Assembly: GCA_043783625.1 (NCBI GenBank) | Contig: JAYVZE010000200.1 | Span: 14,097 to 78,096, forward strand | DNA: 64,000 nt | From: Blastocatellia bacterium | GTDB taxonomy: Bacteria; Acidobacteriota; Blastocatellia; RBC074 | Direction: 5' to 3' | Shown here: positions 2,754-59,638 of the stretch, one piece after another | Numbering within the stretch: position 1 is the stretch's first letter | Layout: each line of letters opens with the position of its first letter | Notes under the pieces: generated by a model | Databases searched by the model: none | What the model was told of the DNA's origin: nothing | What the model saw: only the letters and a program-made list of their open reading frames with translations | Program-made: the position numbers and the translations under genes

Positions 2754-2846
2754 ATCTATGACAATTTCCTGAAACTTTGAGAGCAAAATAAATGATGTGA
2801 TGAACTATCAATGTACACGACGCAATGCGAATCAAGAAGATTTTTT

Positions 2847-2960
2847 CCACGAAGGACACGAAGGGACATGAAGAAAAACATTTTTTTAGTGACCAAAAAA
2901 TTACAGAGATTTCTCTTTATTGGTGATGTCTTTCTTCGTGTCCCTTCGTGTCCTTCGTGG
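2847..2960. promoter_or_regulatory. 30 bp near-perfect inverted repeat (CCACGAAGGACACGAAGGGACATGAAGAAA) flanking a 54 bp AT-rich spacer in the divergent tatD/mqnA promoter region
   Basis: Arms 2847..2876 and 2931..2960 are reverse complements with one mismatch. Lies between divergently transcribed genes. Confidence 0.5.
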
Positions 2961-2991
2961 ATGATAAATTCTTTTCCTGCTTGTTAACTAT

Positions 2992-3804
2992 ATGCGAATT
3001 GCCGCTTCAACTTATCTCAATTCTGCGCCGTTGATTTACAGTTTCACTTCCGGCATGCAGCGCAATCGCGCCATTTTTATTGGCGATGCGGCTCCCGCTC
3101 GTTGTGCGCAAATGTTAGCGAACGGGCAATGCGACATCGCGTTAATTCCGGTGATTGAATACCTGCGAATCCCGAACCTCCGCATCATCCCGAACGTGGC
3201 CGTAGCCTCTAAAAACCGGATCGAAAGCGTCATCCTTGCCACCAAATGCGAACCAAATAAAATTTCAAAAATCGCCTTGGACAGCTCTTCGCGCACTTCG
3301 CAAACCTTAGTCAAAATTTTGATGGCAAACCGGTTTCATCACCAGCCAACTTATTGCGAACGACTTCCTGATCCCGGCTGCGCGAATATGTTTGAGGGAA
3401 CCGACGCCGCGCTGGTGATTGGCGATCCCGCTTTTCACGTCAAAGCCAACGCCGAACGGCTTCATTTGAAGATTTACGACTTAGCCGAAGAGTGGAGAGC
3501 CTTAACCGATTTGCCCTTTGTCTTCGCCGTCTGGGTCGTGCGCGAAGATGCTTTGCCGGAATATCATCGCTTCAAATTAGATTTTGAAATGGCGAAACGC
3601 GAAGGATTGGAACGCGCTCACGAAATCGCGGAACAATACGCGACAGTACTGAATAAATCTTCTGCTGAATTATTTTCTTATCTCACGAAAAATGTGAACT
3701 ACGAATTAGACGGCGAAAATTTAGCAGGGCTGCGCGAATATTTCCGAGAAGCGTTTGAATTGCGATTGGTTGAGCAACAGAAAGAATTATTATTTGTCTC
3801 CTAA
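2992..3804 (+). CDS. mqnA: chorismate dehydratase MqnA (futalosine pathway of menaquinone biosynthesis; MqnA/MqnD family)
   Basis: Motifs LNSAPLIYSF, DIALIPV, SRTSQTLVKIL, LVIGDPAF and DLPFVFAVWVVRED match the MqnA periplasmic-binding-like fold family. Confidence 0.65.
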   Translation: MRIAASTYLNSAPLIYSFTSGMQRNRAIFIGDAAPARCAQMLANGQCDIALIPVIEYLRIPNLRIIPNVAVASKNRIESVILATKCEPNKISKIALDSSSRTSQTLVKILMANRFHHQPTYCERLPDPGCANMFEGTDAALVIGDPAFHVKANAERLHLKIYDLAEEWRALTDLPFVFAVWVVREDALPEYHRFKLDFEMAKREGLERAHEIAEQYATVLNKSSAELFSYLTKNVNYELDGENLAGLREYFREAFELRLVEQQKELLFVS

Positions 3805-3912
3805 TGCAGAAGCCCGCACACAGTAAGGGCGTCTTTTCTCCACAAGAATTATAGATATTTTTTAGTGCCTTCAAAATGTGAAGGCGCCCTTACTGCGTGC
3901 GGGCTTCTGCAT
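3804..3912. repeat. REP-like palindromic element family 1, copy 2, with inner hairpin gccttcaaaatgtgaaggc
   Basis: Arms atgcagaagcccgcacacagtaagggcgtc and ggcgcccttactgcgtgcgggcttctgcat. Same sequence family as 505..579. Confidence 0.75.
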
Positions 3913-3996
3913 TCTTTCTGCAAAAATAATTGTCAGTTGATAATGGGTAGTTGATAATGTTCCTCGCCAAACTTCTTTCCCCGGAGTTCAAAATTT

Positions 3997-6201
3997 ATGA
4001 ATAAAATTCTTCATCTCGCGCTCTTCATTTTATTGTTTCTTTCCCCACTTCAGGCGCAAACCAAGCGCGGATTCCTGCCCGAAGACCTCTATCAACTCAA
4101 GGACGTTGCCGATGCCAACATTTCTCCTGACGGCTCCCGCGTCGCCTACACCGTCACCGAAGTCAGTGCCGATCATTCGCGCAACGTCACGCACATCTGG
4201 TTAGTCAAAACCGAAGGCGGCGAACCAACCCGCTTAACAAAAGATGCTGCTGATGAAAGCACTCCGCGCTGGTCACCGGATGGAAAATGGCTCGCGTATT
4301 ATTCACAAGATGCTTTATGGGTCATCAACCCTGATGGCGGAAAGTCGCTGCATTTGCCGGATGGGAATTGGGTGAAGACGCCAAATACCGAACCACAAAA
4401 AATCACTCGTGTCGCCCGGACAAATTTCTTTTTTACCAAAGCCGGAGAAAGCTTCACCTGGTCGCCTGACAGCAAACAAATTGCGTTTGTGAGTGATCCG
4501 ATCATTCTGCCTCCAAACCCAATGATGGAGCGGCTGACACGTGGTTTAAGTCAGGACGAATTGATGCGGCTTCCGACCGAAACCAGAAATACAATTTTGA
4601 AAGCGCAGGGGAAATCTGCCGAACAAATTTCCGCGCTGGAAGCGGATTACAAAGCACAACAGGCGAAAGCCAGCAACTACACGACTGATGTCAAAGTCGT
4701 GACGCGGTTGCAGTACAAATCACGGACTTCGTTTTCAGACAATTTGCAATCCCACATTTTTATTGCAGACGTAGCAACGAAAGAACTGCGCCAATTGACG
4801 AGTGGAAATTATGCCGAGCATTCCATCAACTGGTCTCCGAAAGGCGATGAAATTGTCTTCGTCTCCAACCACGAACCCGATCCCGACAAAATTAACAACA
4901 CCGATTTATTTGTAGCCAACGTCACCACAGGCGCAGTGCGACAACTGACCAAAACAAAGGGCTGCGAATGGCAACCCGTGTTTTCGCCGGATGGCAGTCA
5001 GATTGCGTATCTGGCTACGACACGCGATGTGACGACGATTGATAGTGTGGCAGAAGATGCACATGCTTGGGTGATTTCAGCAAATGGTGAGAATGCGAAA
5101 GAATCCAGATCGCCGAAGAATGAGGATACTGGGCGGACAATGACAGTGAAATGGTGGAATAAATCTGAACCTGCTTTTCTTACAAATCACATGGGGCAAA
5201 CATATTTTTATGTAGGAATACCATTCCGCCAGCTCTTGGATAGTGCATTTGCCCAAATAAATAATTTCTCCGTATCTAATGGAATAAAATTTGTAAACGT
5301 CATTAATCATGATACTAAAATTCCAGAGGTATACTGTAAAACTTTATCAACTCCGCTAAACTCACATTTAAATCCGATTTCAGTAAAATCTTTATCAAGC
5401 CACAACAAAGCGCTCCAAGATTTGCTTCAGTTCGCTCCAATGATCGAATTTCAATTTCCAAACGAAGGTTTTGAGATAGAAGGCTGGCTTGTGCTTCCGA
5501 TTAATCTCGATGAGAAGAAAAAATATCCGGTGATTCTTTATATTCACGGCGGGCCGCACGGGATGCACGGGTACAGTTTCAATGCGACGGTGCAGGCTCT
5601 CGCGGCGAAAGGTTATGGCGTACTGCTCATCAATCCGCGTGGCTCATCCGGCTACGGACAAAAATTTTCGGATGGATGCGTGAATGATTGGGGCGGCGGC
5701 GATTACCGCGATTTGATGCGCGGCGTAGATGTCGCGCTGGAAAAATTTTCGTATCTCGACAAAGACCGCAGGGGCGTGATGGGCGGCAGCTACGGCGGCT
5801 ATATGACGAATTGGATTGTCACGCAAAACGACCGTTTCAAAGCCGCGATTGCCTCCGCGAGCCTGTCAAATCTGATCAGTTTTTATTCGACTTCGCTCTA
5901 TCAGGATTTGGTTCACGCCGAATTCAACGGGATGCCGTGGGACAATTACGAAAAATTGTGGGATCGTTCGCCGCTCAAACATATCAAAAATGTGAAGACG
6001 CCGACGATGCTCATCCACGGCGAAAACGACAACGATGTTCACATCACGCAAGCCGAAGAAATGTACACCGCCCTGAAAATGCGCGGCGTAGACACAGTGC
6101 TGGTGCGCTACCCGCGCGAAGGTCACGACATCCGCGAACCGAAACATCGCGTGGATAATTTGCAGAGAAATTTGGATTGGTTTGAGAAATATTTGAAGTA
6201 G
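3997..6201 (+). CDS. secreted S9 family serine peptidase (prolyl oligopeptidase / acylaminoacyl-peptidase type) with N-terminal TolB-like beta-propeller
   Basis: Signal peptide, SPDG propeller repeats, catalytic GGSYGGYM (GxSxG) nucleophile elbow, Asp and His in the C-terminal alpha/beta-hydrolase domain. Confidence 0.8.
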   Translation: MNKILHLALFILLFLSPLQAQTKRGFLPEDLYQLKDVADANISPDGSRVAYTVTEVSADHSRNVTHIWLVKTEGGEPTRLTKDAADESTPRWSPDGKWLAYYSQDALWVINPDGGKSLHLPDGNWVKTPNTEPQKITRVARTNFFFTKAGESFTWSPDSKQIAFVSDPIILPPNPMMERLTRGLSQDELMRLPTETRNTILKAQGKSAEQISALEADYKAQQAKASNYTTDVKVVTRLQYKSRTSFSDNLQSHIFIADVATKELRQLTSGNYAEHSINWSPKGDEIVFVSNHEPDPDKINNTDLFVANVTTGAVRQLTKTKGCEWQPVFSPDGSQIAYLATTRDVTTIDSVAEDAHAWVISANGENAKESRSPKNEDTGRTMTVKWWNKSEPAFLTNHMGQTYFYVGIPFRQLLDSAFAQINNFSVSNGIKFVNVINHDTKIPEVYCKTLSTPLNSHLNPISVKSLSSHNKALQDLLQFAPMIEFQFPNEGFEIEGWLVLPINLDEKKKYPVILYIHGGPHGMHGYSFNATVQALAAKGYGVLLINPRGSSGYGQKFSDGCVNDWGGGDYRDLMRGVDVALEKFSYLDKDRRGVMGGSYGGYMTNWIVTQNDRFKAAIASASLSNLISFYSTSLYQDLVHAEFNGMPWDNYEKLWDRSPLKHIKNVKTPTMLIHGENDNDVHITQAEEMYTALKMRGVDTVLVRYPREGHDIREPKHRVDNLQRNLDWFEKYLK

Positions 6202-6203
6202 TC

Positions 6204-6366
6204 GGAGCGCCAGCATCCTGCTGGCTCCGCGAGCGCGTGCAACGCCGCTCGCGTAACGTGGCGAGGAGTGCGAGTGATTTGCCAGTTAGCTCCCTCACCA
6301 AAAGCATTTGCATCGCTCGCGCTTGCAAACGCAGCAAGCAGGATGCTTGCGCTCCCAGTACGCTCC
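6204..6366. repeat. compound palindromic element carrying two copies of the GCNNGCAGGATGCNNGC(G/A)CTCC hairpin motif, between convergent genes
   Basis: ggagcgccagcatcctgctggctcc at 6204..6228 and gcaagcaggatgcttgcgctcccag at 6331..6355, with further internal hairpins. Confidence 0.6.
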
Positions 6367-7864: not shown

Positions 7865-7938
7865 AGTCAGTACTACCTGCGGTAGCGGGTGGAAGTAGCG
7901 TTGATGCTCACCACCCGCTACCGCAGGTGGTACTGACT
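7865..7938. repeat. REP element family 2 (arms AGTCAGTACCACCTGCGGTAGCGGGTGG), doublet hairpin; same family as the REPs flanking the RAYT gene
   Basis: 28 nt inverted repeat with 18 nt spacer immediately downstream of the receptor stop codon. Confidence 0.75.
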
Positions 7939-12838: not shown

Positions 12839-12887
12839 AATTTCATTCCATATATCCGCCAACATTAAGTGCAGATGTTGATCTACA

Positions 12888-12963
12888 CCACCCGCTACGA
12901 CAGCGGTTACTGTGGCGTTGCAGTCGTGGCAGTTGAGTCAGTACCACCTGTGGTAGCGGGTGG
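12888..12963. repeat. REP element family 2 (degenerate left arm, intact right arm) flanking the RAYT gene
   Basis: Right arm agtcagtaccacctgtggtagcgggtgg, left arm ccacccgctacgacagcggttactgtgg. Confidence 0.65.
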
Positions 12964-12974
12964 TAGATTTTCCA

Positions 12975-13484: not shown

Positions 13485-13543
13485 GATTTGTTTATGTCAG
13501 TGTTGTCGCTACCGATGATACCGACTCTAACTATGCTGCAACG

Positions 13544-13628
13544 ATTGAGTCAGTACCCGCTGCGGTAGCGGCGGGTTTTCTTTAGACAAGAGCTGCCACC
13601 CGCTACCGCAGGTGGTACTGACTCAATC
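13544..13628. repeat. REP element family 2 doublet flanking the RAYT gene
   Basis: Arms gagtcagtacccgctgcggtagcggcggg and ccacccgctaccgcaggtggtactgactc with extended outer pairing gattgagtcagtac / gtactgactcaatc. Confidence 0.7.
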
Positions 13629-13629
13629 G

Positions 13630-21127: not shown

Positions 21128-21210
21128 AAGTTGCGTAAGAACTTTACGAAGAGGCGTAGCTCAATTCCCAAAATCGTTATAGCTTTCAGAAAATGAACTT
21201 TCAATCAAAG

Positions 21211-21392
21211 CTCCAACGGAGCGAAATACAATAGCCCAGGGTGCAACCCTGGGTAGGATCAGAAATAGAATCCAAGCCCTGAAGGGGCGAAATAAATTAT
21301 TGCGCCCTTTCAGGGCTTGATTTTTTCCGTGCAATCAACCCAGGGTTGCACCCTGGGCTATTGTATTGCCACCCCTTCGGGGTTCTGTTCGG
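21211..21392. repeat. about 180 bp nested-palindrome element (family 3), copy 1
   Basis: Outer IR atagcccagggtgcaaccctggg / cccagggttgcaccctgggctat, inner IR gccctgaaggggcg / cgccctttcagggc, terminal ccaacggagcg. Second copy at 24091..24286. Confidence 0.7.
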
Positions 21393-24090: not shown

Positions 24091-24286
24091 AGTCCCAACG
24101 GGACGCCGATAACATAGCTCAGGGTGCAACCCCGGGTAAGATCGGAACATATAAAGTAGCCCTGAAGGGGCGACATAAAAAATCTGTGAATATCTCGCCC
24201 TTTCAGGGCTTGCGCAAAAATCTCAACGCTTCCCGGGGTTGCACCCCGGGCTATTACATTCCGCTCCGTTGGAGCTTTGTTCGGAG
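24091..24286. repeat. about 190 bp nested-palindrome element (family 3), copy 2, same orientation as copy 1
   Basis: Outer IR atagctcagggtgcaaccccggg / cccggggttgcaccccgggctat with compensatory A:T to G:C change relative to copy 1. Inner IR gccctgaaggggcg / cgccctttcagggc. Terminal cccaacggg / ccgttggag. Confidence 0.7.
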
Positions 24287-32901: not shown

Positions 32902-33345
32902 TTAGCCCTCAATTTTGCCTGGAGCTGCCACAAAGCCTGTCGCCGCAATTCCTGCCAAGGCACACAATTCATCATTGTCACCCGTATCGCCCGTGACACC
33001 GACTGCGCCGATAATTTCTTGATGTTCGTCGAGAATTAATACGCCGCCGGGCGAAGGCACTGCGCGCCCCTGACTGATCGTCGTCAGCGCATCAATGAAG
33101 GCTGGAAACTTCGCCGCACGTTCGGTGATTTCGCGTGTGCCGAAACCCATGCCGAGCGATCCCCACGCTTTACCATACGCGATGTCAAAGCGCACGATGC
33201 CTGCGCCGTCTTCGCGTTTGAAGACCATGACGTGACCGCCAGCATCCAGCACCGCAACAGCCATCGGAGCGAGTTTTAGCTTGCGGGCTTCGGCTAATGC
33301 CGTATCAACAATTTTTTCGGCATGTGCCAATTTTAGTTTTGCCAT
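32902..33345 (-). CDS. GlcG/HbpS-like heme-binding protein (DUF336)
   Basis: 147 aa, conserved AVLDAGGHV and GGVLI segments. Confidence 0.6.
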   Translation of the reverse strand: MAKLKLAHAEKIVDTALAEARKLKLAPMAVAVLDAGGHVMVFKREDGAGIVRFDIAYGKAWGSLGMGFGTREITERAAKFPAFIDALTTISQGRAVPSPGGVLILDEHQEIIGAVGVTGDTGDNDELCALAGIAATGFVAAPGKIEG

Positions 33346-33354
33346 AGGAATACA

Positions 33355-33420
33355 GGTGTCGGGTTTCGGGTGTTAGGTGTTAGGTAATCGAAATTAACCT
33401 GACACCCGACACCTAACACC
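33355..33420. terminator. imperfect GT-rich hairpin (ggtgttaggt repeats) between GlcG-like gene and upstream receptor gene
   Basis: ggtgtcgggtttcgggtgttaggtgttaggt pairs with acctgacacccgacacctaacacc. Confidence 0.4.
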
Positions 33421-33424
33421 TCTT

Positions 33425-36400
33425 CTAAAAAGTAAGTTTCATCGCTAATTGAATCTGACGCGGATCAAAGGTGCGGTTAATCGTGCCAAAAGAAGCACTC
33501 GAACGATTGCCGTTCGCCGGATAAAAATTCGTCTTGTTCAGGAAGTTGAAAAATTCTCCGCGAAATTGCAGCTTCGACCCTTCCCACGGTAAGCGAAAGT
33601 TTTTATGCAATCCCAAATCAACTTGAAAATAGGGATGGCTGCGCACTGTATTGCGTCCCGCATTGCCAAACGGTAGCGAGCGGTCAGTGGGGATGACGAC
33701 ATTATTGAGGTTAAAATAATTTGTAATCGTACGTTCTCCACTTGGTGCGAGCGCATCGCCGATCACATTCGGACGCGGATTGCTGCTGCCAACGCCGAAA
33801 GCTGCGGCGGGTGAATAGGTCAGCGTGATCGGCTGCCCGCTCCACATATTGTTGATAAAACTCATCTGCCAACCACCAACCAACGCATCGGCGAGAGCCG
33901 GCATCTTCGCGCCAAAGCGACGCCCGTTACCCAGCGGCATATCCCACACTACGCTGGTCACATTCGTCAACGTTTGGTCGTATGCCGACAAGCCTTTTTC
34001 CGCAGCGAGATTGAAATAATTTTGCGGCCCCGGCGAATTGCCGTTGGGGTTTTCCAGCACCTGCGCCGAATTATCCATCGCCTTTGACCAGGTAAACGAA
34101 TTCAATACATACAACCCGCCAGAAACGCGCCGCTCAAAGCGGGCTTGCAAACCATGATAATTTGACCAGCCGCCAGGAAAGTACGCGTTGATCGTAGCAA
34201 ACGTCGTAATCCGACGGCGCGCTTGCAGCGTAGCATTTTCGGTCGTCGCGTTCGGACGTGCCTGATTGAAGTCAGCCACCATCGGCAATTTCACCGCACG
34301 ATTCCCCACGTAAGCAACGTCCAGCAGCGTATTGCGAGCAATCTCTCGTTGCAGCGAAAGGAACCAGCTTTGCACATACGAACTCGGCAAATCACGCGGA
34401 ATATATTTCACCGAAGCGTTAAGCGGACGGAAGCTGGACGGCGAAGTAAAGTCCGTTGGATAGCCCTGCCCCGTCGTACGGAAGGTCGCATCCGTCGGCA
34501 ACTGATTGACGACTCCATTGACGACTTGCGGGCCGTTGACCGCTAACAGATTCGAGGTACCAGCGCGATTGAAATGGTTGAAGCTGATGCCAAAACCGCC
34601 GCGTGCGGTAATCTTCAAAGGCCCGCTGTAAGCAAAGCCAAGCCGTGGCCCCCAATTATTGCGATCAGGGTTCAGCAGGGAGCGTCCAGCCAAAGAATCG
34701 CCCGTTGGAAAAATAATCGCATTTGCCACCGGATCGAAATTGCTAATCTTGTTATCGCGTTCCCATTGCGGTGTCGCGTATTCATAGCGGACACCTAAAT
34801 TCAACGTCAATTTTGAATTCACCTTGAAATCATCCTGCACATAACCGAAATGCATCCGCTGACGATATTGCGCGATGAAAAAATTCACCAGCGCATATTG
34901 GCTGCGCAGACCGAAAAGAAAATCGGCTACGTTATAGGTTGCACTGTCCGCTACACCACCCGTCGGACGGCTGAAATTGCCGCCATAAGTGTCCTGCCCA
35001 TATAACGGATTCACGTCCATGATTTCAGTGTTGACGCTCTGATATTCATAGCCCGTTTTGATGGAGTGCCTGCCCTTTAAAAACGAGTAGTTCACTTTCG
35101 GATTGATGACAAACGGATGTTGCCATTGCGGATTTGAAGGACGACGTCCGAGGCTGGTGAAGCCCGTAATATTTTGGGTCGTCAGCGGCCCGGTCAACGT
35201 GCGATCTTCGGGCAATCCGGTGATGCCAAATAATTCTTTCATGCTGGGACCGCCAATGCCCACAGGCTCTTTGCCTGCGCGTGTACGCGTAATTCCCATA
35301 CGGAATTCCAACAACGAAGTCGTTGTCAACGTCCTCGTAATAGCTCCGGCAAGTTGCTGATTCAGCACCCTCGTGAAGCCGTTCCCTGACCCGCCGGACG
35401 CGCCTGGAATGACAGGTTCATTGAAGACGTTGCTCTTGCGCTGACCGATGCGCACAAATGCCGTCGTCCGCGTGTTAATTTGTTGGTCAAACTTCAGATC
35501 AAACTTGTCATTAAAATCTTTGCTGCGCGGTGAATATTGAAAATTATTAGCGCGTCCGGCGATGGTCGGCGTAGGAAGATTCTTGAGTACCTGTAACGCG
35601 AACGGCGTGATTTTATTGGTTGGAATCGCTGTATTCGCCGCGAACGTTTCATTCGTCAGCGGATTACGAACCGGTTTGTCAAAGAGTCCAATGCGGTCAT
35701 TCAGAGTTGGGATTGAAGTAAAGACCGGCACACGACTGACTTCGCGGAAGCCTTCGTAACTCAAAAAGAAAAATGTACTGTTGCGGCGAATCGGTCCGCC
35801 CAAGACGCCGCCGAATTGATTACGTTGCAACACGGGTTTAACGCCGCCGAGCGGTTTGAAAAATCCAACCGCATTGAAATTCGTATTACGCACAAATTCC
35901 CACAACGCACCGTGAAATTGATTCGTACCGCTCTTCACCGAAGCGTTGATCGTCGCGCCACCGCTACGTCCAAATTCGGCACTCATGTTGTTGGTTACGA
36001 CTTTGAATTCTTCCAGCGCATCAGGGGAAACCTGCATTGCCTGATTGGAAAAATTCTGATTACTGGTTCCGTAAGAATTATTGTCTACGCCATCGAGCAG
36101 GAAATTATTGAAGGTGCTGCGCAGCCCGTTAGCATTGAACGAACCTTCGCGCGCATCGCCGCCCTGTGAATCTACAGATTGCGAAAGTGTGGATTGACGG
36201 ATGCCCGTCGAGAGCAACGCCAGTGCCGAGTATTGGCGACCATTCAACGGTAATTCGACAATTTGTTGACGATTGATCACCTGTCCACGGTCGCTGGATT
36301 CAGCCTCGACGAGACTGGCTCCGCCCGTAACCTGTACGGTTTCCGTCAAGGAACCAACTTTCAAAACCATATCAACTCGCTGGCGTGCGCTGACGGTAAC

Positions 36401-36703
36401 GGTGATGCCATCAGCAACCGCAGTTGAAAAACCACTCATCTCCGCGCTGACCTTGTACGTCCCGATCTTGACGTTCAAAAATTGGTAGCTCCCATTTTCA
36501 TCGGTCAATGCCGTAGCAGTAATTCCAGTGCCGCTATTCGTCAAAGTAACTTTGACTCCAGCAACGATATTGTCACTGGCATCGCGGATCGAACCCAGCA
36601 CCGTGGCGGTATCGAATTGGGCGAAGGCTGGTGTCATGAATAGAAAATAGAGAACGACGACGACTTCCGCCGCACGTCGCAGCAGGCGAGTAAAACTCTT
36701 CAT
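33425..36703 (-). CDS. TonB-dependent receptor with N-terminal carboxypeptidase-regulatory-like domain
   Basis: Signal peptide, CarbopepD_reg N-terminus, 1092 aa, C-terminal KLTF. Confidence 0.8.
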   Translation of the reverse strand: MKSFTRLLRRAAEVVVVLYFLFMTPAFAQFDTATVLGSIRDASDNIVAGVKVTLTNSGTGITATALTDENGSYQFLNVKIGTYKVSAEMSGFSTAVADGITVTVSARQRVDMVLKVGSLTETVQVTGGASLVEAESSDRGQVINRQQIVELPLNGRQYSALALLSTGIRQSTLSQSVDSQGGDAREGSFNANGLRSTFNNFLLDGVDNNSYGTSNQNFSNQAMQVSPDALEEFKVVTNNMSAEFGRSGGATINASVKSGTNQFHGALWEFVRNTNFNAVGFFKPLGGVKPVLQRNQFGGVLGGPIRRNSTFFFLSYEGFREVSRVPVFTSIPTLNDRIGLFDKPVRNPLTNETFAANTAIPTNKITPFALQVLKNLPTPTIAGRANNFQYSPRSKDFNDKFDLKFDQQINTRTTAFVRIGQRKSNVFNEPVIPGASGGSGNGFTRVLNQQLAGAITRTLTTTSLLEFRMGITRTRAGKEPVGIGGPSMKELFGITGLPEDRTLTGPLTTQNITGFTSLGRRPSNPQWQHPFVINPKVNYSFLKGRHSIKTGYEYQSVNTEIMDVNPLYGQDTYGGNFSRPTGGVADSATYNVADFLFGLRSQYALVNFFIAQYRQRMHFGYVQDDFKVNSKLTLNLGVRYEYATPQWERDNKISNFDPVANAIIFPTGDSLAGRSLLNPDRNNWGPRLGFAYSGPLKITARGGFGISFNHFNRAGTSNLLAVNGPQVVNGVVNQLPTDATFRTTGQGYPTDFTSPSSFRPLNASVKYIPRDLPSSYVQSWFLSLQREIARNTLLDVAYVGNRAVKLPMVADFNQARPNATTENATLQARRRITTFATINAYFPGGWSNYHGLQARFERRVSGGLYVLNSFTWSKAMDNSAQVLENPNGNSPGPQNYFNLAAEKGLSAYDQTLTNVTSVVWDMPLGNGRRFGAKMPALADALVGGWQMSFINNMWSGQPITLTYSPAAAFGVGSSNPRPNVIGDALAPSGERTITNYFNLNNVVIPTDRSLPFGNAGRNTVRSHPYFQVDLGLHKNFRLPWEGSKLQFRGEFFNFLNKTNFYPANGNRSSASFGTINRTFDPRQIQLAMKLTF

Positions 36704-53929: not shown

Positions 53930-55336
53930 TTACGAGCGAACGTATTCAAATTCAAACGGCTGATGATTGACACCGACTTTCGGCGGCGCGATCCAGTTGG
54001 CAATTTTTCCAACTTCAGTCACAGGAGTCATCAGGCTTTGCACATATTCGCGGTCTGCTAACATCGGCAGCCATTCACTCGAACGTCGCACAAATTCTTC
54101 TGCCGAAAGCGGCACACCTTGCACATCAAAATTGTATCCGGCATACGCTCCAACATGGCGATGGAAGCGGCGGCTCGGTAAATACAGGCGTTCGGCGATG
54201 TCTTCGTCAGCTAAGATTTTATTCCAGCGCAGCAATCCGCGCTCGCAATCTTTGCCGTATTCATTGCGCAGAACTTCATTCAACGCATTGCGCAGTGGCA
54301 CTTCTTTGAATTGCAGGCGATTCTCTTCCAGCACTTCAATGCTGTAACTGCCTTCCGCCACGATGTGATCTTCGTAGCGTTTTTGTTCTTCGTAGCGACC
54401 TTTCAAACCCGCCGCAAAAAAATCCGCTGAGTTGGAACTAATCTCGCCACCAAACAAATCAAGCGAATAGCTGTACCAGTAATTGATGTATTTCTGAATA
54501 ATCTCAAGCGGAATGCCGCCGCGTGCTTTCACCTCTTCATTGGGGCTTTCTTTCATCAACTGTGCGGTGCGTTTGACCACACGACCGATGCCCGTTTCAC
54601 CAACAAACAAATGATGCGCCTCTTCGGTCAGCATAAAACGACAAGTGCGTTGCAACGGCTCAAAGCCTGATTCAGCCAGTGCCGCCAACTGATATTTGCC
54701 GTCGCGGTCGGTGAACATCGCGAACGCGAAAAAGTTCAGCCAGTCGTCGCACGGTTGATTGAAGGCTTGCAGGATGCGCGGCTTGTCAGCATCACCGCTG
54801 CGGCGTTGCAATAACTCATCAGCTTCTTCGCGTCCGTCGCGTCCGAAATAACCGTGCAGCAAATAGACCATCGCCCATAAATGACGACCTTCTTCGACGT
54901 TGACTTGAAATAAATTTCTGAGGTCATAGAGCGATGGACAAGTCTTGCCGAGTTGTCGTTGTTGCTCTACAGAAGCAGGTTCGGTGTCGCCTTGCGTGAC
55001 AATGATGCGGCGTAGCGAGTTGCGAAATTCGCCCGGCACTTCCTGATAAACCGGCTTGCCGTAATTATCGCCAAAGCCGATAGTCGCGCCCTGCTGCGCC
55101 GGAGTCAGAAAAATTCCCCAGCGATAATCGGGCATTTTCACATAATCAAAATGTGCCCAGCCCGAAGGTTCTACGCTGATGGCAGTACGCAAATACACAT
55201 CTTTTTGCTGAAAACCATCCGGCCCCATTTCGTTCCACCAGCTCAAATAATTGGGCAGCCATTTTTCCAGCGCACGTTGCAAACGCACGTCATCGGCGAG
55301 ATTTACATTGTTAGGAATGCGGTCGTAAAGGCTCAT
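53930..55336 (-). CDS. boxB: benzoyl-CoA 2,3-epoxidase, diiron oxygenase component BoxB
   Basis: About 468 aa from MSLYDRIPNNVNLADDVRLQRALEKW. Diiron ligand motifs EEGRHLW and LTEEAHH. Adjacent to boxC. Confidence 0.7.
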   Translation of the reverse strand: MSLYDRIPNNVNLADDVRLQRALEKWLPNYLSWWNEMGPDGFQQKDVYLRTAISVEPSGWAHFDYVKMPDYRWGIFLTPAQQGATIGFGDNYGKPVYQEVPGEFRNSLRRIIVTQGDTEPASVEQQRQLGKTCPSLYDLRNLFQVNVEEGRHLWAMVYLLHGYFGRDGREEADELLQRRSGDADKPRILQAFNQPCDDWLNFFAFAMFTDRDGKYQLAALAESGFEPLQRTCRFMLTEEAHHLFVGETGIGRVVKRTAQLMKESPNEEVKARGGIPLEIIQKYINYWYSYSLDLFGGEISSNSADFFAAGLKGRYEEQKRYEDHIVAEGSYSIEVLEENRLQFKEVPLRNALNEVLRNEYGKDCERGLLRWNKILADEDIAERLYLPSRRFHRHVGAYAGYNFDVQGVPLSAEEFVRRSSEWLPMLADREYVQSLMTPVTEVGKIANWIAPPKVGVNHQPFEFEYVRS

Positions 55337-55339
55337 AGT

Positions 55340-55456
55340 GATTGCGGAGTGCGGATTTGGGATTGCGGGTTCAAGAATTGGACTTACAAAAATTTTTCTC
55401 CAATATTTGCGGAGCACAGTTTTTTTACCGCAACCCACAATCCCAAATCCGCAATC
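55340..55456. promoter_or_regulatory. 32 nt imperfect inverted repeat containing doubled GATTGCGG half-sites, in the boxC-boxB intergenic spacer
   Basis: Arm gattgcggagtgcggatttgggattgcgggtt at 55340..55371 pairs with accgcaacccacaatcccaaatccgcaatc at 55427..55456. Extra ttgcggag copy in spacer. Confidence 0.5.
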
Positions 55457-55458
55457 AA

Positions 55459-57081
55459 TTAAGTGCGTTTGTAATCAAATTTCGCCTGCGTCGGTTTGCC
55501 GTAATTGGTCAGTGCACCATTTTCGCCAACGGCGTTGGGGCGTTGAAAAATCCAGTTTTGCCACGCGGTCAATCGTCCGAAAATTTTTGTGTCGTGCGTC
55601 TCTGCTCCGGCAAAACGTAAGTTCGCTTCCATCCCTGTCAGCGCGTCGGGCGAAAGCGCAGTGCGCTCTTCAATCGCCAAACGGATTTCATCATCCCAAT
55701 CCAGATCGTCAGGCGCAGTGGTAATCAAACCCGCTTCATCAGCGGCTTCGGTGTCAAAGCGTGCGGTTTGCAAGACGGCTTCGACTTGTTCGGATTGCGC
55801 GAGGAAGCGCGATTGCAAGCGCGTCAAACCGTTACTCATCGGCAACGCTCCGGCGTTCAGCTCACTCGTAGCAATTTCAACCGGATGCGATGCATCGTTG
55901 AGCATGTAAGTGCGATCAGCCGCAAGCGCGAGTTCAAGCAAGCAGCCCGCAAAACAACTGCCGGGTTCGATCAGCGCGAAGAAACTCTTCGCCGTCAGGT
56001 CAAGCCGCCGCAACGTCCGCGCCATAAATAAAAGCGTTTCACGCACCAGCCAATGTTCACGCTGTTCGGTCAAGACGCGATCCACTGCCAGCACATTTTC
56101 AGCATTGCCTGTCGTTCGCAAAATCAGCAAACCGATTTCGGGTTCGTTGGCGCGTAAGTGCAACAGCGCGTTATCAAGGTCACGGAACGCGGCGAGCGGC
56201 CACCATGCATCACCAAGTTTTTGAATTTCATTCGCGTCAGTTGGTTGCGTATCTTCCGGCGCACGTAACGTCAATTCGGCATAACGCTTGTCCCGATGCA
56301 TACGCAAACTGACGTGATGGTATTCGCGTGCGTTGTCACTGCTTTCAATTTGCAACGGATGCAGTTTGATTCCTTGCAGCGATTCGCTTGTCGCCGCCAG
56401 TTCACGCGCTCGTGCCGTAATCGCTTCATCAAATTTTGTTGTCGGAAAATAATCGTCAATTAATCCCCATTCTTTCGCACGTTTGGCTTTGAAGCCTTCC
56501 GCTAACGTAGAAAAAATGTCCGCACGGTCACGGCGAATTTTGCGTTTGTCTACTAATCGCGTCAGCCCGCCCGTTCCCGGCAACACGCCGAGCAGTGGCA
56601 CTTCAGGTAATGAAACTGCGGCGTTGCCATCATCCACCAGATAAATTTCTTCGCACGCAATTGCCAGTTCATAACCGCCGCCCGAAGCCGTGCCGTTCAG
56701 CGCGGCGATGTATCGCTGCCCCGAATTGCGCGAAGCGTCTTCAATGCCGCAGCGCGTTTCGTTCGTAAATTTACAGAAATTGACTTTGTGCGCGTGCGAC
56801 GAAGTGCCAAGCATGTATATGTTTGCACCTGCGCAAAAGATGCGCGGTTTCAAACTCGTGACAATGACGACGCACACTGACGGATGCTCAAAGCGTAGTC
56901 GTTCGACAGCATCGGCGAGTTCAATGTCTACGCCAAGATCGTAAGAATTCAGCTTTAATTTATAGCCCTCAAACAGCGTCGCATCTTCATTCACATCCAT
57001 CGTCAACGTAGCGATTGCGCCATCAACGCTGAGCCTCCAATGCCGATAGAGTTCGGGAGAAGTTTCAAAATCAATATGCAT
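55459..57081 (-). CDS. boxC: 2,3-epoxybenzoyl-CoA dihydrolase (benzoyl-CoA-dihydrodiol lyase) BoxC, crotonase superfamily
   Basis: 540 aa. N-terminal MHIDFETSPELYRHWRLSVDG. Two enoyl-CoA hydratase-like domains. Confidence 0.7.
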   Translation of the reverse strand: MHIDFETSPELYRHWRLSVDGAIATLTMDVNEDATLFEGYKLKLNSYDLGVDIELADAVERLRFEHPSVCVVIVTSLKPRIFCAGANIYMLGTSSHAHKVNFCKFTNETRCGIEDASRNSGQRYIAALNGTASGGGYELAIACEEIYLVDDGNAAVSLPEVPLLGVLPGTGGLTRLVDKRKIRRDRADIFSTLAEGFKAKRAKEWGLIDDYFPTTKFDEAITARARELAATSESLQGIKLHPLQIESSDNAREYHHVSLRMHRDKRYAELTLRAPEDTQPTDANEIQKLGDAWWPLAAFRDLDNALLHLRANEPEIGLLILRTTGNAENVLAVDRVLTEQREHWLVRETLLFMARTLRRLDLTAKSFFALIEPGSCFAGCLLELALAADRTYMLNDASHPVEIATSELNAGALPMSNGLTRLQSRFLAQSEQVEAVLQTARFDTEAADEAGLITTAPDDLDWDDEIRLAIEERTALSPDALTGMEANLRFAGAETHDTKIFGRLTAWQNWIFQRPNAVGENGALTNYGKPTQAKFDYKRT

Positions 57082-57106
57082 ATTTCTTCACTGGGCGCGT
57101 CTTTTA

Positions 57107-57210
57107 CTGGGAGTGCCCGCATCCTGCGGGCGAATCCGTACTCAGGGAAACCTTTTTATCGCAGGTAGTTGCTCGCCACGGCTTCGCCCGCAGGATGCGG
57201 GCGCTCCCAG
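57107..57210. repeat. inverted pair of GCAGGATGC hairpin motifs (ctgggagtgcccgcatcctgcgggcg / cgcccgcaggatgcgggcgctcccag)
   Basis: Exact reverse-complement arms with 53 nt spacer between ligase and boxC genes. Confidence 0.65.
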
Positions 57211-57212
57211 TA

Positions 57213-58706
57213 TTATTCTCGTAACTTGAATCGTTGAATTTTGCCGCTCGCGGTTTTCGGCAATTTATTCACAAAATCAATCAGGTGCGGATACTGAAAG
57301 CGTTGTAACCGCGCTTTGCACCATTGCTGCAATTCGTTTTTCAGTACAGGCGTTTCTGCATTATGCAAAATAATCACAGCGCGAATCCGCAGCACGCCAT
57401 CAACGTTGACACCAACCACAGCGGCTTCATTGACTGCCGCGTGTTCGAGCAAAACATTTTCCATTTCAATCGGCGAAACCCATTCGCCGCCAACTTTGAG
57501 CATGTCGTCGGCGCGACCTTCATACCAATAAAAGCCCTCTGCATCGCAGCGATAACGATCTCCTGTGACCATCCATTCGCCTTGCATCGTGCGGCGTGTC
57601 TTCTCACGGTTGCGCCAATAATACGCCGCCGCGCTTGCGCCCTTAACCAGCAAATGTCCCGTCTCGCCAATAACGACAAGGCTTCCGTTGTCATCTATAA
57701 TTTTTAATTCGTAACCCGGTACGGCTTTGCCGCTCGATCCCGGCTGACATTCTGCCGTCGTATTCGAGCAGAAAATATGCAGCATTTCAGTCGAACCAAT
57801 ACCATCCAAAATTTCTAAGTCGTAGGTTTCTTTCCACCGCCGCCACGTCTCAGGCGCGAGCGGTTCGGCAGCAGAGATACAGCGACGCACCGAAGACAAA
57901 TCGCCTTTTCCGCCCTCATTCAAAATTGCGTTGTAAAGCGTCGGCACCAAACATAACACCGTCGGGCGATAGCGTTCGATTGCTTCGAGAATACCACGCG
58001 GCGCAACTCGTCCGGGCAACAGCACCGTAGCCGCTCCAATACTGAACGGGAAGCTTAGCGCGTTACCAATTCCGTAAGCGTGAAACAACACGCGCCCCAA
58101 CACAATGTCGTTTTCATCCAATGCCAGCACGTGTTTGCTGTAGGTCTCACACGTCGCCGGAATCGCGCCGTGCAAATGGACTACACCTTTGGGATTGCCG
58201 GTCGAGCCGGAACTATAAAGCCAAAACGCCATGTCATCGCGGTGCGTGTTGGCGGGAGAAATTTCTGTGGGATAGGCTTTGAGTAATTCGTTCAAATCTT
58301 CGGCGACGATCACGTGAACGGCTTCGCCATAACCAACTAACGCTTCGTTTAATTTCTCAGCATTTGCGGCATCAACAATCACCACGCAGGCTTCGCTGTC
58401 TTCCAGAAAAAAACGGTAATCGCTGACTTTATACAAAGGATTCACTGGCACAGGAACCGCACCAATGCGCATCGCGCCAAAAAAAGAAATTGGAAAAGCA
58501 GGCGTGTCGCCCAGAATCAGCAACACACGATTTTCACGCGCTACGCCAAGTGCTTGCAGTGCGCCTGCCATGGCACAAACACGCCGGAACAATTCGTCAT
58601 AGCTGATTTTTTCATCGCCAAAATAGATGGCGGTACGCGCACCGCGTCCTGCCGCCAAATTGTCGTCAATCAATGTACTCGCGTTGTGTCGCGCTGTGAA
58701 CATCAT
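57213..58706 (-). CDS. benzoate-CoA ligase family (AMP-binding adenylate-forming enzyme)
   Basis: SSGSTGNPKG P-loop-like AMP motif, TGD motif, about 497 aa from MMFTARH. ATGA overlap with upstream esterase stop. Confidence 0.7.
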   Translation of the reverse strand: MMFTARHNASTLIDDNLAAGRGARTAIYFGDEKISYDELFRRVCAMAGALQALGVARENRVLLILGDTPAFPISFFGAMRIGAVPVPVNPLYKVSDYRFFLEDSEACVVIVDAANAEKLNEALVGYGEAVHVIVAEDLNELLKAYPTEISPANTHRDDMAFWLYSSGSTGNPKGVVHLHGAIPATCETYSKHVLALDENDIVLGRVLFHAYGIGNALSFPFSIGAATVLLPGRVAPRGILEAIERYRPTVLCLVPTLYNAILNEGGKGDLSSVRRCISAAEPLAPETWRRWKETYDLEILDGIGSTEMLHIFCSNTTAECQPGSSGKAVPGYELKIIDDNGSLVVIGETGHLLVKGASAAAYYWRNREKTRRTMQGEWMVTGDRYRCDAEGFYWYEGRADDMLKVGGEWVSPIEMENVLLEHAAVNEAAVVGVNVDGVLRIRAVIILHNAETPVLKNELQQWCKARLQRFQYPHLIDFVNKLPKTASGKIQRFKLRE

Positions 58707-59638
58707 TTTGCGCTTGGAGCTTTCAGGAGTCCTTGAATGTTCAGCCATTCGCCAAACCGCTCAACCCAACTATCCACTGGCCAGCCGCGATTGGTCAGTC
58801 CGAAACCGTGGCCGCCTTTTGAATAAATGTGTAATTCGGCAGGGCGTTTGGCGGCTTTCCATTCGAGATAAAGTTTGGCGCTGCTCCCGGAAAATGTTTG
58901 GTCATCATCGGCGACCGCGATGAAGAGCGGCGGCGCGTCAGCCACGACGGGCAAGCCGCTCGTGCTGCCGCCATAAATCGGCGCAGCGAAATTCGGACGG
59001 CTGTCGGCGTCGTGTTGCATGACGACACTCATCGTCAACATGCCTCCTGCCGAGAATCCCATCAGTCCAATGCGATCAGGCGCGATGCCCCATTCGACGG
59101 CGCGTTGCCGCACGAGCTTGACGGCTTGTCTGCCATCCGCTGTTGCAAATTCAGCGGCCTTTTGCTGTGCCGGATTCAACACGGGTGCAGCCGCAGGCGT
59201 AGTTGGCGGTTGCGGCGTGCGCGCCCTGTTCGCCGCCGCTAGTTTTTGGTAGTCCTCTTCGCTGCCGGTATCCGCCACGCGGTACTTGAGTACGAAAGCC
59301 GCGACGCCACGCGCTTGTAACCAGCGGGCTACGTTATGGCCTTCTTTCTCGATGGCGAGATGCACAAAAGCCCCGCCAGGTGCAACGATAATCGCTGTGC
59401 CGTTCGCCTTATCACGTTCCGGCAAATACGCCGTCAACGTCGGCTGCGTCACATTGCGGATGCGCGTTTGTTTGTCAGGATTAACAAACGTGACTTCCTT
59501 TTGTTGCGCATTTTCAGAACCGGGTGCGATGCCGGAATACAAGGGAATCACGGGCTGTTGCGCACGAACGCTGGCGGACGCGCACAACAACAAGGCTGCG
59601 ATGCGGCAGGCTGTTTTAGAGAAATTGATTCTTGTCAC
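58703..59638 (-). CDS. secreted alpha/beta-hydrolase esterase with Pro/Thr-rich insertion
   Basis: Signal peptide. GFSAGG nucleophile elbow. Confidence 0.65.
   Translation of the reverse strand: MTRINFSKTACRIAALLLCASASVRAQQPVIPLYSGIAPGSENAQQKEVTFVNPDKQTRIRNVTQPTLTAYLPERDKANGTAIIVAPGGAFVHLAIEKEGHNVARWLQARGVAAFVLKYRVADTGSEEDYQKLAAANRARTPQPPTTPAAAPVLNPAQQKAAEFATADGRQAVKLVRQRAVEWGIAPDRIGLMGFSAGGMLTMSVVMQHDADSRPNFAAPIYGGSTSGLPVVADAPPLFIAVADDDQTFSGSSAKLYLEWKAAKRPAELHIYSKGGHGFGLTNRGWPVDSWVERFGEWLNIQGLLKAPSAK

Follow-up and report, generated by a model that had tools for sequence, protein, structure and literature searches.

The stretch of DNA analysed here (henceforth the window) comprises 64,000 nucleotides of a Blastocatellia bacterium (assembly GCA_043783625.1, contig JAYVZE010000200.1, positions 14,097 to 78,096) and carries a benzoate-CoA ligase family gene, boxC and boxB, all three identified by means of NCBIfam equivalogs, with a FAH-family gene 3 nt downstream of boxB (Table 1). 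The BoxB product has 468 aa, and its length and full coverage agree with its homologues. The stop codon of boxC and the ATG of boxB are 122 nt apart, and 119 nt of this gap are covered by an imperfect palindrome (55339-55457), the subject of this work. A first-pass annotation had described a large imperfect inverted repeat here, between stop and start codons about 120 nt apart, and in both respects, coordinates included, it was right. It had also seen doubled half-sites in the repeat, and suggested either an operator array for a pathway regulator or a hairpin controlling boxB expression relative to boxC. In our reading, to which we assign a probability of roughly 0.7, the element is a palindrome of tandem heptanucleotides, i.e. 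a paired inverted array of the long simple sequence repeat (LSSR) or short tandemly repeated repetitive (STRR) type, and belongs to a generic, fast-turnover, lineage-wide class that is not sequence-specific and is most likely generated by slippage. A role as binding site for a regulator of the benzoate pathway is not supported.

The inverted-repeat arms (55339-55368 and 55428-55457) have 30 nt each and are 80% complementary, reaching 92% over a core of 25 nt (55347-55371 and 55432-55456), with 59-60 nt separating the arms. Three exact copies of the octamer GATTGCGG lie inside 117 nt, two on the plus strand (55340 and 55361) and one on the minus strand (55449-55456), and TTGCGGAG is found again in the spacer at 55407. 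Rather than doubled half-sites, each arm contains four tandem heptamers: on the minus strand the 5' arm reads GATTGCG, GATTTGG, GATTGTG, GGTTGCG, and the reverse complement of the 3' arm reads GATTGCG, GAGTGCG, GATTTGG, GATTGCG. Tandem Repeats Finder (TRF) reports period 7 with 4.1 copies at 55428-55456, and over both arms 34 of 48 self-comparisons at lag 7 are matches, a score reached by none of 20000 shuffles at any lag from 4 to 12. The optimal pairing register of the arms is displaced by exactly one heptamer unit, a shift to be expected because the arms are repeat arrays. As sense RNA the element folds at -50.9 kcal/mol, compared with -30.9 +/- 4.0 for 200 shuffles (z = -5.0, no shuffle equalling it); the antisense strand gives z = -6.6. 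A search of the window for a second copy of the arm, using a 15-mer with at most 3 mismatches, returned 6 matches against 4.0 expected, the exact ones being only the two arms, and Rfam at its gathering thresholds gave no match at the element (its only matches in the window, to Acido-Lenti-1, lie at other sites).

Table 1. Coordinates of the boxC-boxB element, its flanking genes and related features (window positions, except for the long spacers of relatives, given in the coordinates of each locus).
Feature	Position	Strand	Remarks
5' arm as transcribed, TGATTGCGGATTTGGGATTGTGGGTTGCGG	55428..55457	-	four G/T-rich heptamers; begins 1-2 nt past the boxC stop
A/T-rich loop, 56 nt	55372..55427	-	holds a small inner stem
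Inner loop stem CTCCGCAAATATTGGAG	55398-55414	-	its CTCCGCAA copies part of the 3' arm; the third TTGCGGAG copy of the first-pass annotation
3' arm as transcribed, AACCCGCAATCCCAAATCCGCACTCCGCAATCA	55339..55371	-	C/A-rich heptamers, one unit more than the 5' arm; stops 2 nt short of the boxB ATG
boxC stop codon TAA	55459..55461	-	
boxB start codon ATG	55334..55336	-	without preceding Shine-Dalgarno
boxC (2,3-epoxybenzoyl-CoA dihydrolase)	55459..57081	-	upstream cistron; TIGR03222, 832 bits
boxB (benzoyl-CoA 2,3-epoxidase subunit B)	53930..55336	-	downstream cistron; TIGR03225, 740 bits
Benzoate-CoA ligase family gene	57213..58748	-	NCBIfam equivalogs
Second heptamer hairpin, GGTGTYR units	33346..33424	-	-33.4 kcal/mol, z = -4.3
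Palindrome of tandem 9-10-nt units (CACGAAGGR / CTTCGTGTCC)	2834..2973	.	divergent spacer; -71.9 kcal/mol, z = -11
Long spacers with terminal AGTTTTC-type arrays	L014 9511-9992, L023 9557-9998, L026 621-1055, L053 9549-9996, L069 2329-2773, L079 3296-3707		

The best BoxB matches (86-89% identity) came from metagenome-assembled genomes of Blastocatellia/Pyrinomonadaceae, in a search that included GTDB representatives, and the orthologous spacer was compared in 80 related genomes of this lineage. Its length varies from 1 to 1137 nt. Fifteen genomes have spacers of at most 30 nt and no element; an automatic tally placed hairpins of tandem short units, mostly heptamers, in 35 spacers (36 counting the window, which it had put among other hairpins, its degenerate units falling under the TRF threshold), other palindromes in 23 and spacers of other kinds in 6. 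The sequence of the window spacer is conserved in none of the 80. Nothing related to it is found even in the spacers of the closest relatives (L001, L002, L004, L006), and relatives with 86-89% BoxB identity carry unrelated units or none. The repeat unit depends on the clade (GTGACRA, TTTTCAG, CGTGAAT/GGTAAAT, CATTGATT, GGCACAARA, GGCAGTA, AAAGGCA, CCACTGG, GGAAGTC, TGACTCT and others), and the tandem-unit hairpins of the relatives comprise at least 10 unrelated unit sequences. Within the GTGACRA group (L019, L022, L048, L051, L080) the arms have 3-5 units and the loops are unrelated, while L001 and L002 have a loop in common and differ in unit number.

The short spacers look like the ancestral state. 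Their AACGGAGTGAGC block, with the Shine-Dalgarno (SD) sequence, can still be seen on the 3' side of the hairpin in L059, L084 and L022; the hairpins have thus been inserted downstream of the stop codon and upstream of the SD. In the 39 hairpin-bearing spacers the stem starts a median of 2 nt past the stop (interquartile range, IQR, 0-3) and ends a median of 13 nt ahead of the ATG (IQR 9-17). In the window (55337-55350) and its two closest relatives, L001 (3980-4000) and L002 (3985-4000), boxB has no SD, while most other relatives retain GGAG or GAGG between the hairpin and the boxB ATG. Long spacers of 420-490 nt have AGTTTTC-type arrays at both ends around about 370 nt of other sequence (Table 1), and it looks as if later elements had been inserted into the loop of an older hairpin.

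To see the element against its lineage, we took a census of 1.30 Mb, made up of the window and 83 loci. Tandem arrays of at least 3 copies numbered 346 for period 7 and only 42 for period 6, the next most common, and block-wise dinucleotide shuffling left 6 of period 7. The non-redundant set contains 375 heptamer arrays with 128 distinct units, at densities of up to about 10 per 10 kb. Three quarters of these arrays (282) have an inverted partner: 234 are in reciprocal inverted pairs and 48 more have a nearby inverted match of at least 14 nt. Fully intergenic arrays account for 206 of 345, while the intergenic share of the DNA is only about 13%. An arm has a median of 4.3 units (IQR 3.7-4.6) and the loop a median of 39 nt, and the 107 array pairs outside the box spacer lie mostly at co-directional junctions (84, versus 15 convergent and 7 divergent). 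As a test for hairpins behind stop codons, two criteria based on minimum free energy did not discriminate (31% versus 26% in controls for the stricter one), and the junction census rests in their place on an explicit inverted-repeat criterion: a repeat whose arms measure 18 nt or more and which begins no further than 15 nt after the stop is present at 22% of 706 co-directional junctions and in none of 548 in-gene control windows. The commonest stem start is AGT, hence the end ACT, found in 19 of 83 refined hairpins (L001-L084). The class thus defined occupies intergenic spacers of Blastocatellia/Pyrinomonadaceae, and its architecture is also present in at least one planctomycete-like contig.

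This last observation comes from outside the box genes. In the iscS-iscU gap of L135 (4632-4716) and L093 (2868-2954) we found a hairpin of GCGGATT/TGGGATT units (ATTGCGG/ATTTGGG in another frame), placed like the box element: it starts 4 nt past the stop and ends 10 nt ahead of the ATG, leaving a GGAG free. The IscS of L135 has 83-85% identity to proteins of Gemmataceae (Planctomycetota). Hairpins of the same units stand on both sides of rpmJ in L153 (1758-2023). When metagenomes were scanned with the arm 15-mer, most of the 123 matches were single and outside heptad arrays; about 22 were heptad arrays, 16 of them with inverted partners, on contigs of 41-67% G+C. The same hairpin in different phyla reflects either convergence or cross-phylum transfer.

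The arms have a handedness. Among the 84 co-directional cases the 5' arm has more G than C in 58, fewer in 4 and equal numbers in 22. Because a palindrome is identical on both strands, this G-rich-arm-first order is intrinsic to the element and not a matter of its orientation relative to the genes; it makes the arm after the stop codon G/T-rich and the arm before the start codon C/A-rich. Units containing ATG are absent from the 3' arm (0 of 86) and number 10 of 86 in the 5' arm, and units with any start triplet number 16 in the 3' arm versus 46 in the 5' arm. Unpaired single arrays show no bias between sense and antisense strand. Within a hairpin one arm copies the other: a variant unit in one arm has its mirror image in the partner, e.g. 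GAATTCG in L048, and in L080 all 5' units read GTGAT in place of GTGAC, with the matching G-to-A change in every unit of the partner arm. Hairpins of identical unit have unrelated loops. We infer an origin in which 7-nt units arise by replication slippage, and inverted duplication or conversion would keep the arms complementary. Copies would survive only where they are harmless, flush with the stop codon and with the ribosome-binding region of the next gene left free.

As for what the element might do, it would be transcribed within the ligase-boxC-boxB mRNA and fold into a stem of about 25-30 bp, at whose base the boxC stop and the boxB start would be only a few nucleotides apart. A ribosome that opens the foot of the stem while terminating on boxC would favour initiation on boxB, and the long duplex may hinder 3' exonucleases or be a target of RNase III. 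A folding model puts the mean probability of being unpaired, over boxB positions -20 to -1, at 0.42 when the RNA is free and at 0.73 when the boxC stop lies under a ribosome footprint. With boxB lacking an SD in the window, L001 and L002, translational coupling is a reasonable consequence. Any such effect on coupling or mRNA stability is probably generic at most and not specific to the pathway, since the hairpin class is present at about 22% of the co-directional junctions of the lineage.

Several points weigh against the interpretation as a slippage-generated, generic class. A near-identical unit across phyla could mean a conserved binding factor. The slippage-plus-conversion origin, itself deduced, leaves unexplained the 7-nt unit, the approximately four units per arm and the G-rich arm coming first (58 versus 4). 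The units in the window are degenerate (lag-7 identity of 72%), and its array density is 0.5 per 10 kb versus a median of 2.6, a value drawn from the 64 kb, with 2 heptamer loci, over which this genome was sampled. Co-transcription and folding in vivo are suggested only by gene order and by a scan for promoters and terminators that gave nothing above chance (9 terminator-like matches versus 8.4 expected). Finally, when 85 hairpins were folded in both senses, the sense strand was the more stable in 34 and the antisense in 51; the lack of a G-U signature on the sense transcript favours a DNA-level origin and weakens a selected RNA function.

Other explanations have to be weighed against this one. 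Repeated symmetric short motifs are typical of operators, and with three exact octamers in 117 nt it was natural to read the GATTGCGG copies as half-sites for a box-pathway regulator, BoxR-type or other, placed within the operon. This idea is now largely refuted and we consider it very improbable. The sequence is unconserved in all orthologous spacers and 15 relatives have no element whatsoever, while a matching hairpin turns up at the iscSU and rpmJ loci of other organisms. Its strict 7-nt period is shorter than a helical turn, unlike spaced half-sites, and the octamer is at chance level in the 64-kb window (6 matches versus 4.8 expected). The site is intercistronic rather than a promoter, there is no regulator gene within about 10 kb, and TGCA, whose repeats in promoters are recognised by BoxR/BzdR (PMC6449761), occurs 0 times in 55337-55458. 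The other proposal, a dedicated attenuator, terminator or processing hairpin selected to fix the boxB:boxC ratio, is structurally plausible to the extent that a highly stable stem closes the spacer precisely between the two cistrons and, in the model, partly occludes the initiation region of a boxB without SD; a small 5-bp stem with a T-run lies within the loop (55414-55398). In length, a stem of about 25-30 bp, with its 25-nt core at 92% complementarity, would suffice for RNase III, which cleaves continuous double-stranded RNA of about two helical turns or more. Its dedication to the box genes is doubtful. The main stem is not followed by a U-tract (the 3' arm continues into CUAUGAGCC) and terminator-like matches are at chance level; the hairpin is dispensable in 15 relatives and replaced by unrelated ones in others; hairpins of this kind stand at roughly a fifth of co-directional junctions, among them some in ribosomal-protein and Fe-S cluster operons; and the sense strand has no G-U signature. 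We therefore hold a box-specific device of this kind to be improbable.

An alternative of similarly low probability is a non-autonomous mobile element, MITE-like (miniature inverted-repeat transposable element) or REP-like (repetitive extragenic palindrome), inserted by a hairpin-recognising transposase or an enzyme of the RAYT (REP-associated tyrosine transposase) type. It would fit the presence/absence polymorphism of orthologous spacers, in which the hairpin has gone in between the stop and an SD block that was kept, as well as the AGT stem start in 19 of 83 hairpins. In 21 kb of L051 there are, moreover, no fewer than 7 GTGACRA hairpins; two composite ones among them contain the same nested CGTGAAT inner arrays, a sign that complete elements may be duplicated now and then. 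Against this, none of the 83 refined hairpins is flanked by a direct repeat of 4 nt or more, and repeats of 2-3 nt are near control levels; the box element itself is flanked by TT and CT, with no target-site duplication. Loops are unrelated among same-unit hairpins and arms change by whole units, as slippage predicts, and the 64-kb window contains neither a second copy nor, adjoining the element, any transposase that we could see. Still less credible is a G-quadruplex or i-motif element, as proposed for the G-rich heptamers of Xanthomonas and Nostoc. The G-rich arm does have four G-runs (GG, GGG, GGG, GG) with loops of 4-5 nt, and four units per arm would suit the G-quadruplex argument of PMC4692102, but the result would be a two-tetrad structure at most, in competition with a duplex of about -50 kcal/mol. 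The preference for four units (median 4.3) extends to units without G-tracts (GTGACRA, TTTTCAG, CGTGAAT), which undercuts the explanation.

A broader claim would be that heptad palindromes form a structurally defined, sequence-independent intercistronic class across Acidobacteriota, Planctomycetota, Xanthomonas and cyanobacteria, kept by a dedicated mechanism or by selection. Constant in their architecture would be the length of the unit (7 nt), the number of units in an arm (about four), the leading position of the G/T-rich arm, and a stem flush with the stop codon that leaves the ribosome-binding site (RBS) free. We regard this as rather unlikely; if true, the hairpins could be devices that juxtapose stop and start codons for re-initiation, or that insulate cistrons, and G-quadruplexes, the published rationale, could not explain the class as a whole.

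Around the element, the neighbours of the box genes are the CoA ligase, the FAH-family protein, esterases and glycoside hydrolases. Over 43175-63899 the ligase-boxC-boxB-FAH-family genes sit amid glycoside hydrolases (GH43, GH3, GH106, arabinofuranosidase) and esterases, with neither boxA nor a regulator near them, and the neighbourhood may be a locus for the utilisation of plant polymers and phenolics. A second heptamer hairpin of the window (Table 1) fills the gap between a gene for a TonB-dependent-receptor-like outer-membrane protein (33425..36703, minus strand) and an HbpS-like gene (32902..33345, minus strand). The ligase-boxC gap contains another large palindrome, unrelated to the element (57105-57212; arms of 35 nt, 94% complementary; RNA at -77.9 kcal/mol, z = -10.7), in which each arm is self-complementary (GCCCGCAtccTGCGGGC). 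Its family also appears at 6198-6361 and in the boxC-boxB spacers of L036, L040, L072, L073 and L082. The three Rfam matches to Acido-Lenti-1 (21209-21253 on the minus strand, 21339-21384 and 24232-24276 on the plus strand) are arms of larger palindromes (21208-21384 and 24114-24276) between co-directional genes, so that Acido-Lenti-1 here behaves like a repeated palindromic element more than like a stand-alone small RNA (sRNA) gene. Two further families of intergenic inverted repeats are found at 505-579 and 3803-3913 (ATGCAGAAGCCCGCAC...), and at 7865-7938, 12887-12964 and 13542-13629 (AGTCAGTACnACCTGCGGTAGCGGGTGG). Altogether the 64-kb window holds about 13 long intergenic palindromes, which represent no fewer than 6 families.

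For the box operon, a tempting regulatory annotation is removed and the motif becomes uninformative about benzoate control. Within its lineage the element is nothing unusual, but the hairpin class to which it belongs is regular and abundant. Soil Blastocatellia/Pyrinomonadaceae rank with the richest carriers of heptamer-repeat hairpins, and these offer a large natural set of variants for asking whether such hairpins act on translational coupling or mRNA decay. The palindromes also lengthen intergenic gaps within operons and may mislead predictions of operons, sRNAs and operators in these phyla.

Among known systems, the operators of BoxR/BzdR in Azoarcus and other Betaproteobacteria are TGCA repeats in the promoters of divergent box clusters, with boxR adjoining (PMC6449761). 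Like them, the element has short repeated motifs, is palindromic and lies near box genes; unlike them it is without TGCA and without boxR, intercistronic and unconserved, and no XRE/shikimate-kinase-like regulator stands beside the box genes. Nor does it resemble MITEs, as there is no target-site duplication among the 83 class members and no internal sequence shared by same-unit hairpins.

REP elements and bacterial interspersed mosaic elements (BIME) of enterobacteria and pseudomonads are generic, operon-transcribed palindromes thought to influence mRNA stability. The box element is likewise an intergenic imperfect palindrome, in a class that is often intercistronic and generic rather than gene-specific, and the behaviour proposed for it is akin to theirs. 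REPs, as characterised in PMC3733652, have units of 20-40 nt whose sequence is conserved over hundreds of copies, and a GTAG/CGTC tag. Our element, in contrast, has no conserved family sequence and its arms are tandem heptamers; the tag is at the outer end of neither arm, the sense strand of the spacer having only a GTAA-adjacent GTAAG, in the loop.

In many bacterial genomes no long simple repeats are as over-represented as heptanucleotides, for which polymerase slippage is the proposed cause (Mrazek et al. 2007, as summarised in PMC4679880 and PMC4692102). The TAACTGA repeats of Beggiatoaceae (MacGregor 2015, PMC4679880) comprise 169 direct sets versus one indirect and lie a few nucleotides upstream of starts, in spacers often without canonical RBS, and a translational role has been proposed for them (PMC4679880). 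Similar in the box element are a heptamer array a few nucleotides upstream of the start codon and a spacer without SD; different are the single conserved unit of TAACTGA, its nearly exclusive direct repeats and its lack of hairpins. The STRR heptanucleotides of cyanobacteria are tandem, non-coding and often within operons, with function unknown (Mrazek et al. 2007, as summarised in PMC4679880 and PMC4692102). The box element and its class have what marks LSSR/STRR repeats: tandem 7-nt units above chance, a non-coding site together with a heptamer excess, and variation in unit number and sequence among close relatives. They share with the cyanobacterial repeats tandem heptanucleotides in non-coding DNA, an excess over other unit lengths and slippage as proposed origin, but few Nostoc arrays are paired (PMC4692102) versus three quarters here, as long hairpins filling intercistronic spacers.

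The closest likeness is to the GGGAATC repeats of Xanthomonas (Rehm et al. 2015), with 186 and 183 arrays in two genomes and 70-75 inverted pairs (PMC4692102). They are mostly of four units, lie preferentially between aligned open reading frames and are under-represented between divergent ones, have the G-rich strand as sense beside stop codons and antisense beside starts, differ in length and sequence among close species, and have no known function (PMC4692102). In common with them, the class described here has the 7-nt unit, about four units, the strong intergenic bias with its preference for aligned over divergent neighbours, convergent pairs able to form stem-loops, a G-rich sense strand at the stop and variation among relatives; the paired share is about 75% in both (by our arithmetic from 70 pairs in 186 arrays), and the units are similar (GGGAATC versus TGGGATT/GCGGATT). 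We assign the box element to the Xanthomonas-type heptamer class because of these shared properties and the similar unit. The differences are the phylum, Acidobacteriota, and the repertoire, one dominant unit per Xanthomonas genome versus at least 128 units across Blastocatellia, several per genome. Most units here have no G-tracts, so that G-quadruplexes are not the common denominator; that Xanthomonas-like rules hold with units unable to form them leaves fewer explanations for the bacterial excess of heptanucleotides. Our literature searches returned no prior description of heptamer or palindromic repeats in Acidobacteria, Blastocatellia or Planctomycetes. What is new is the occurrence of the heptamer inverted-pair class in a new phylum, Acidobacteriota, with a large diversity of units.

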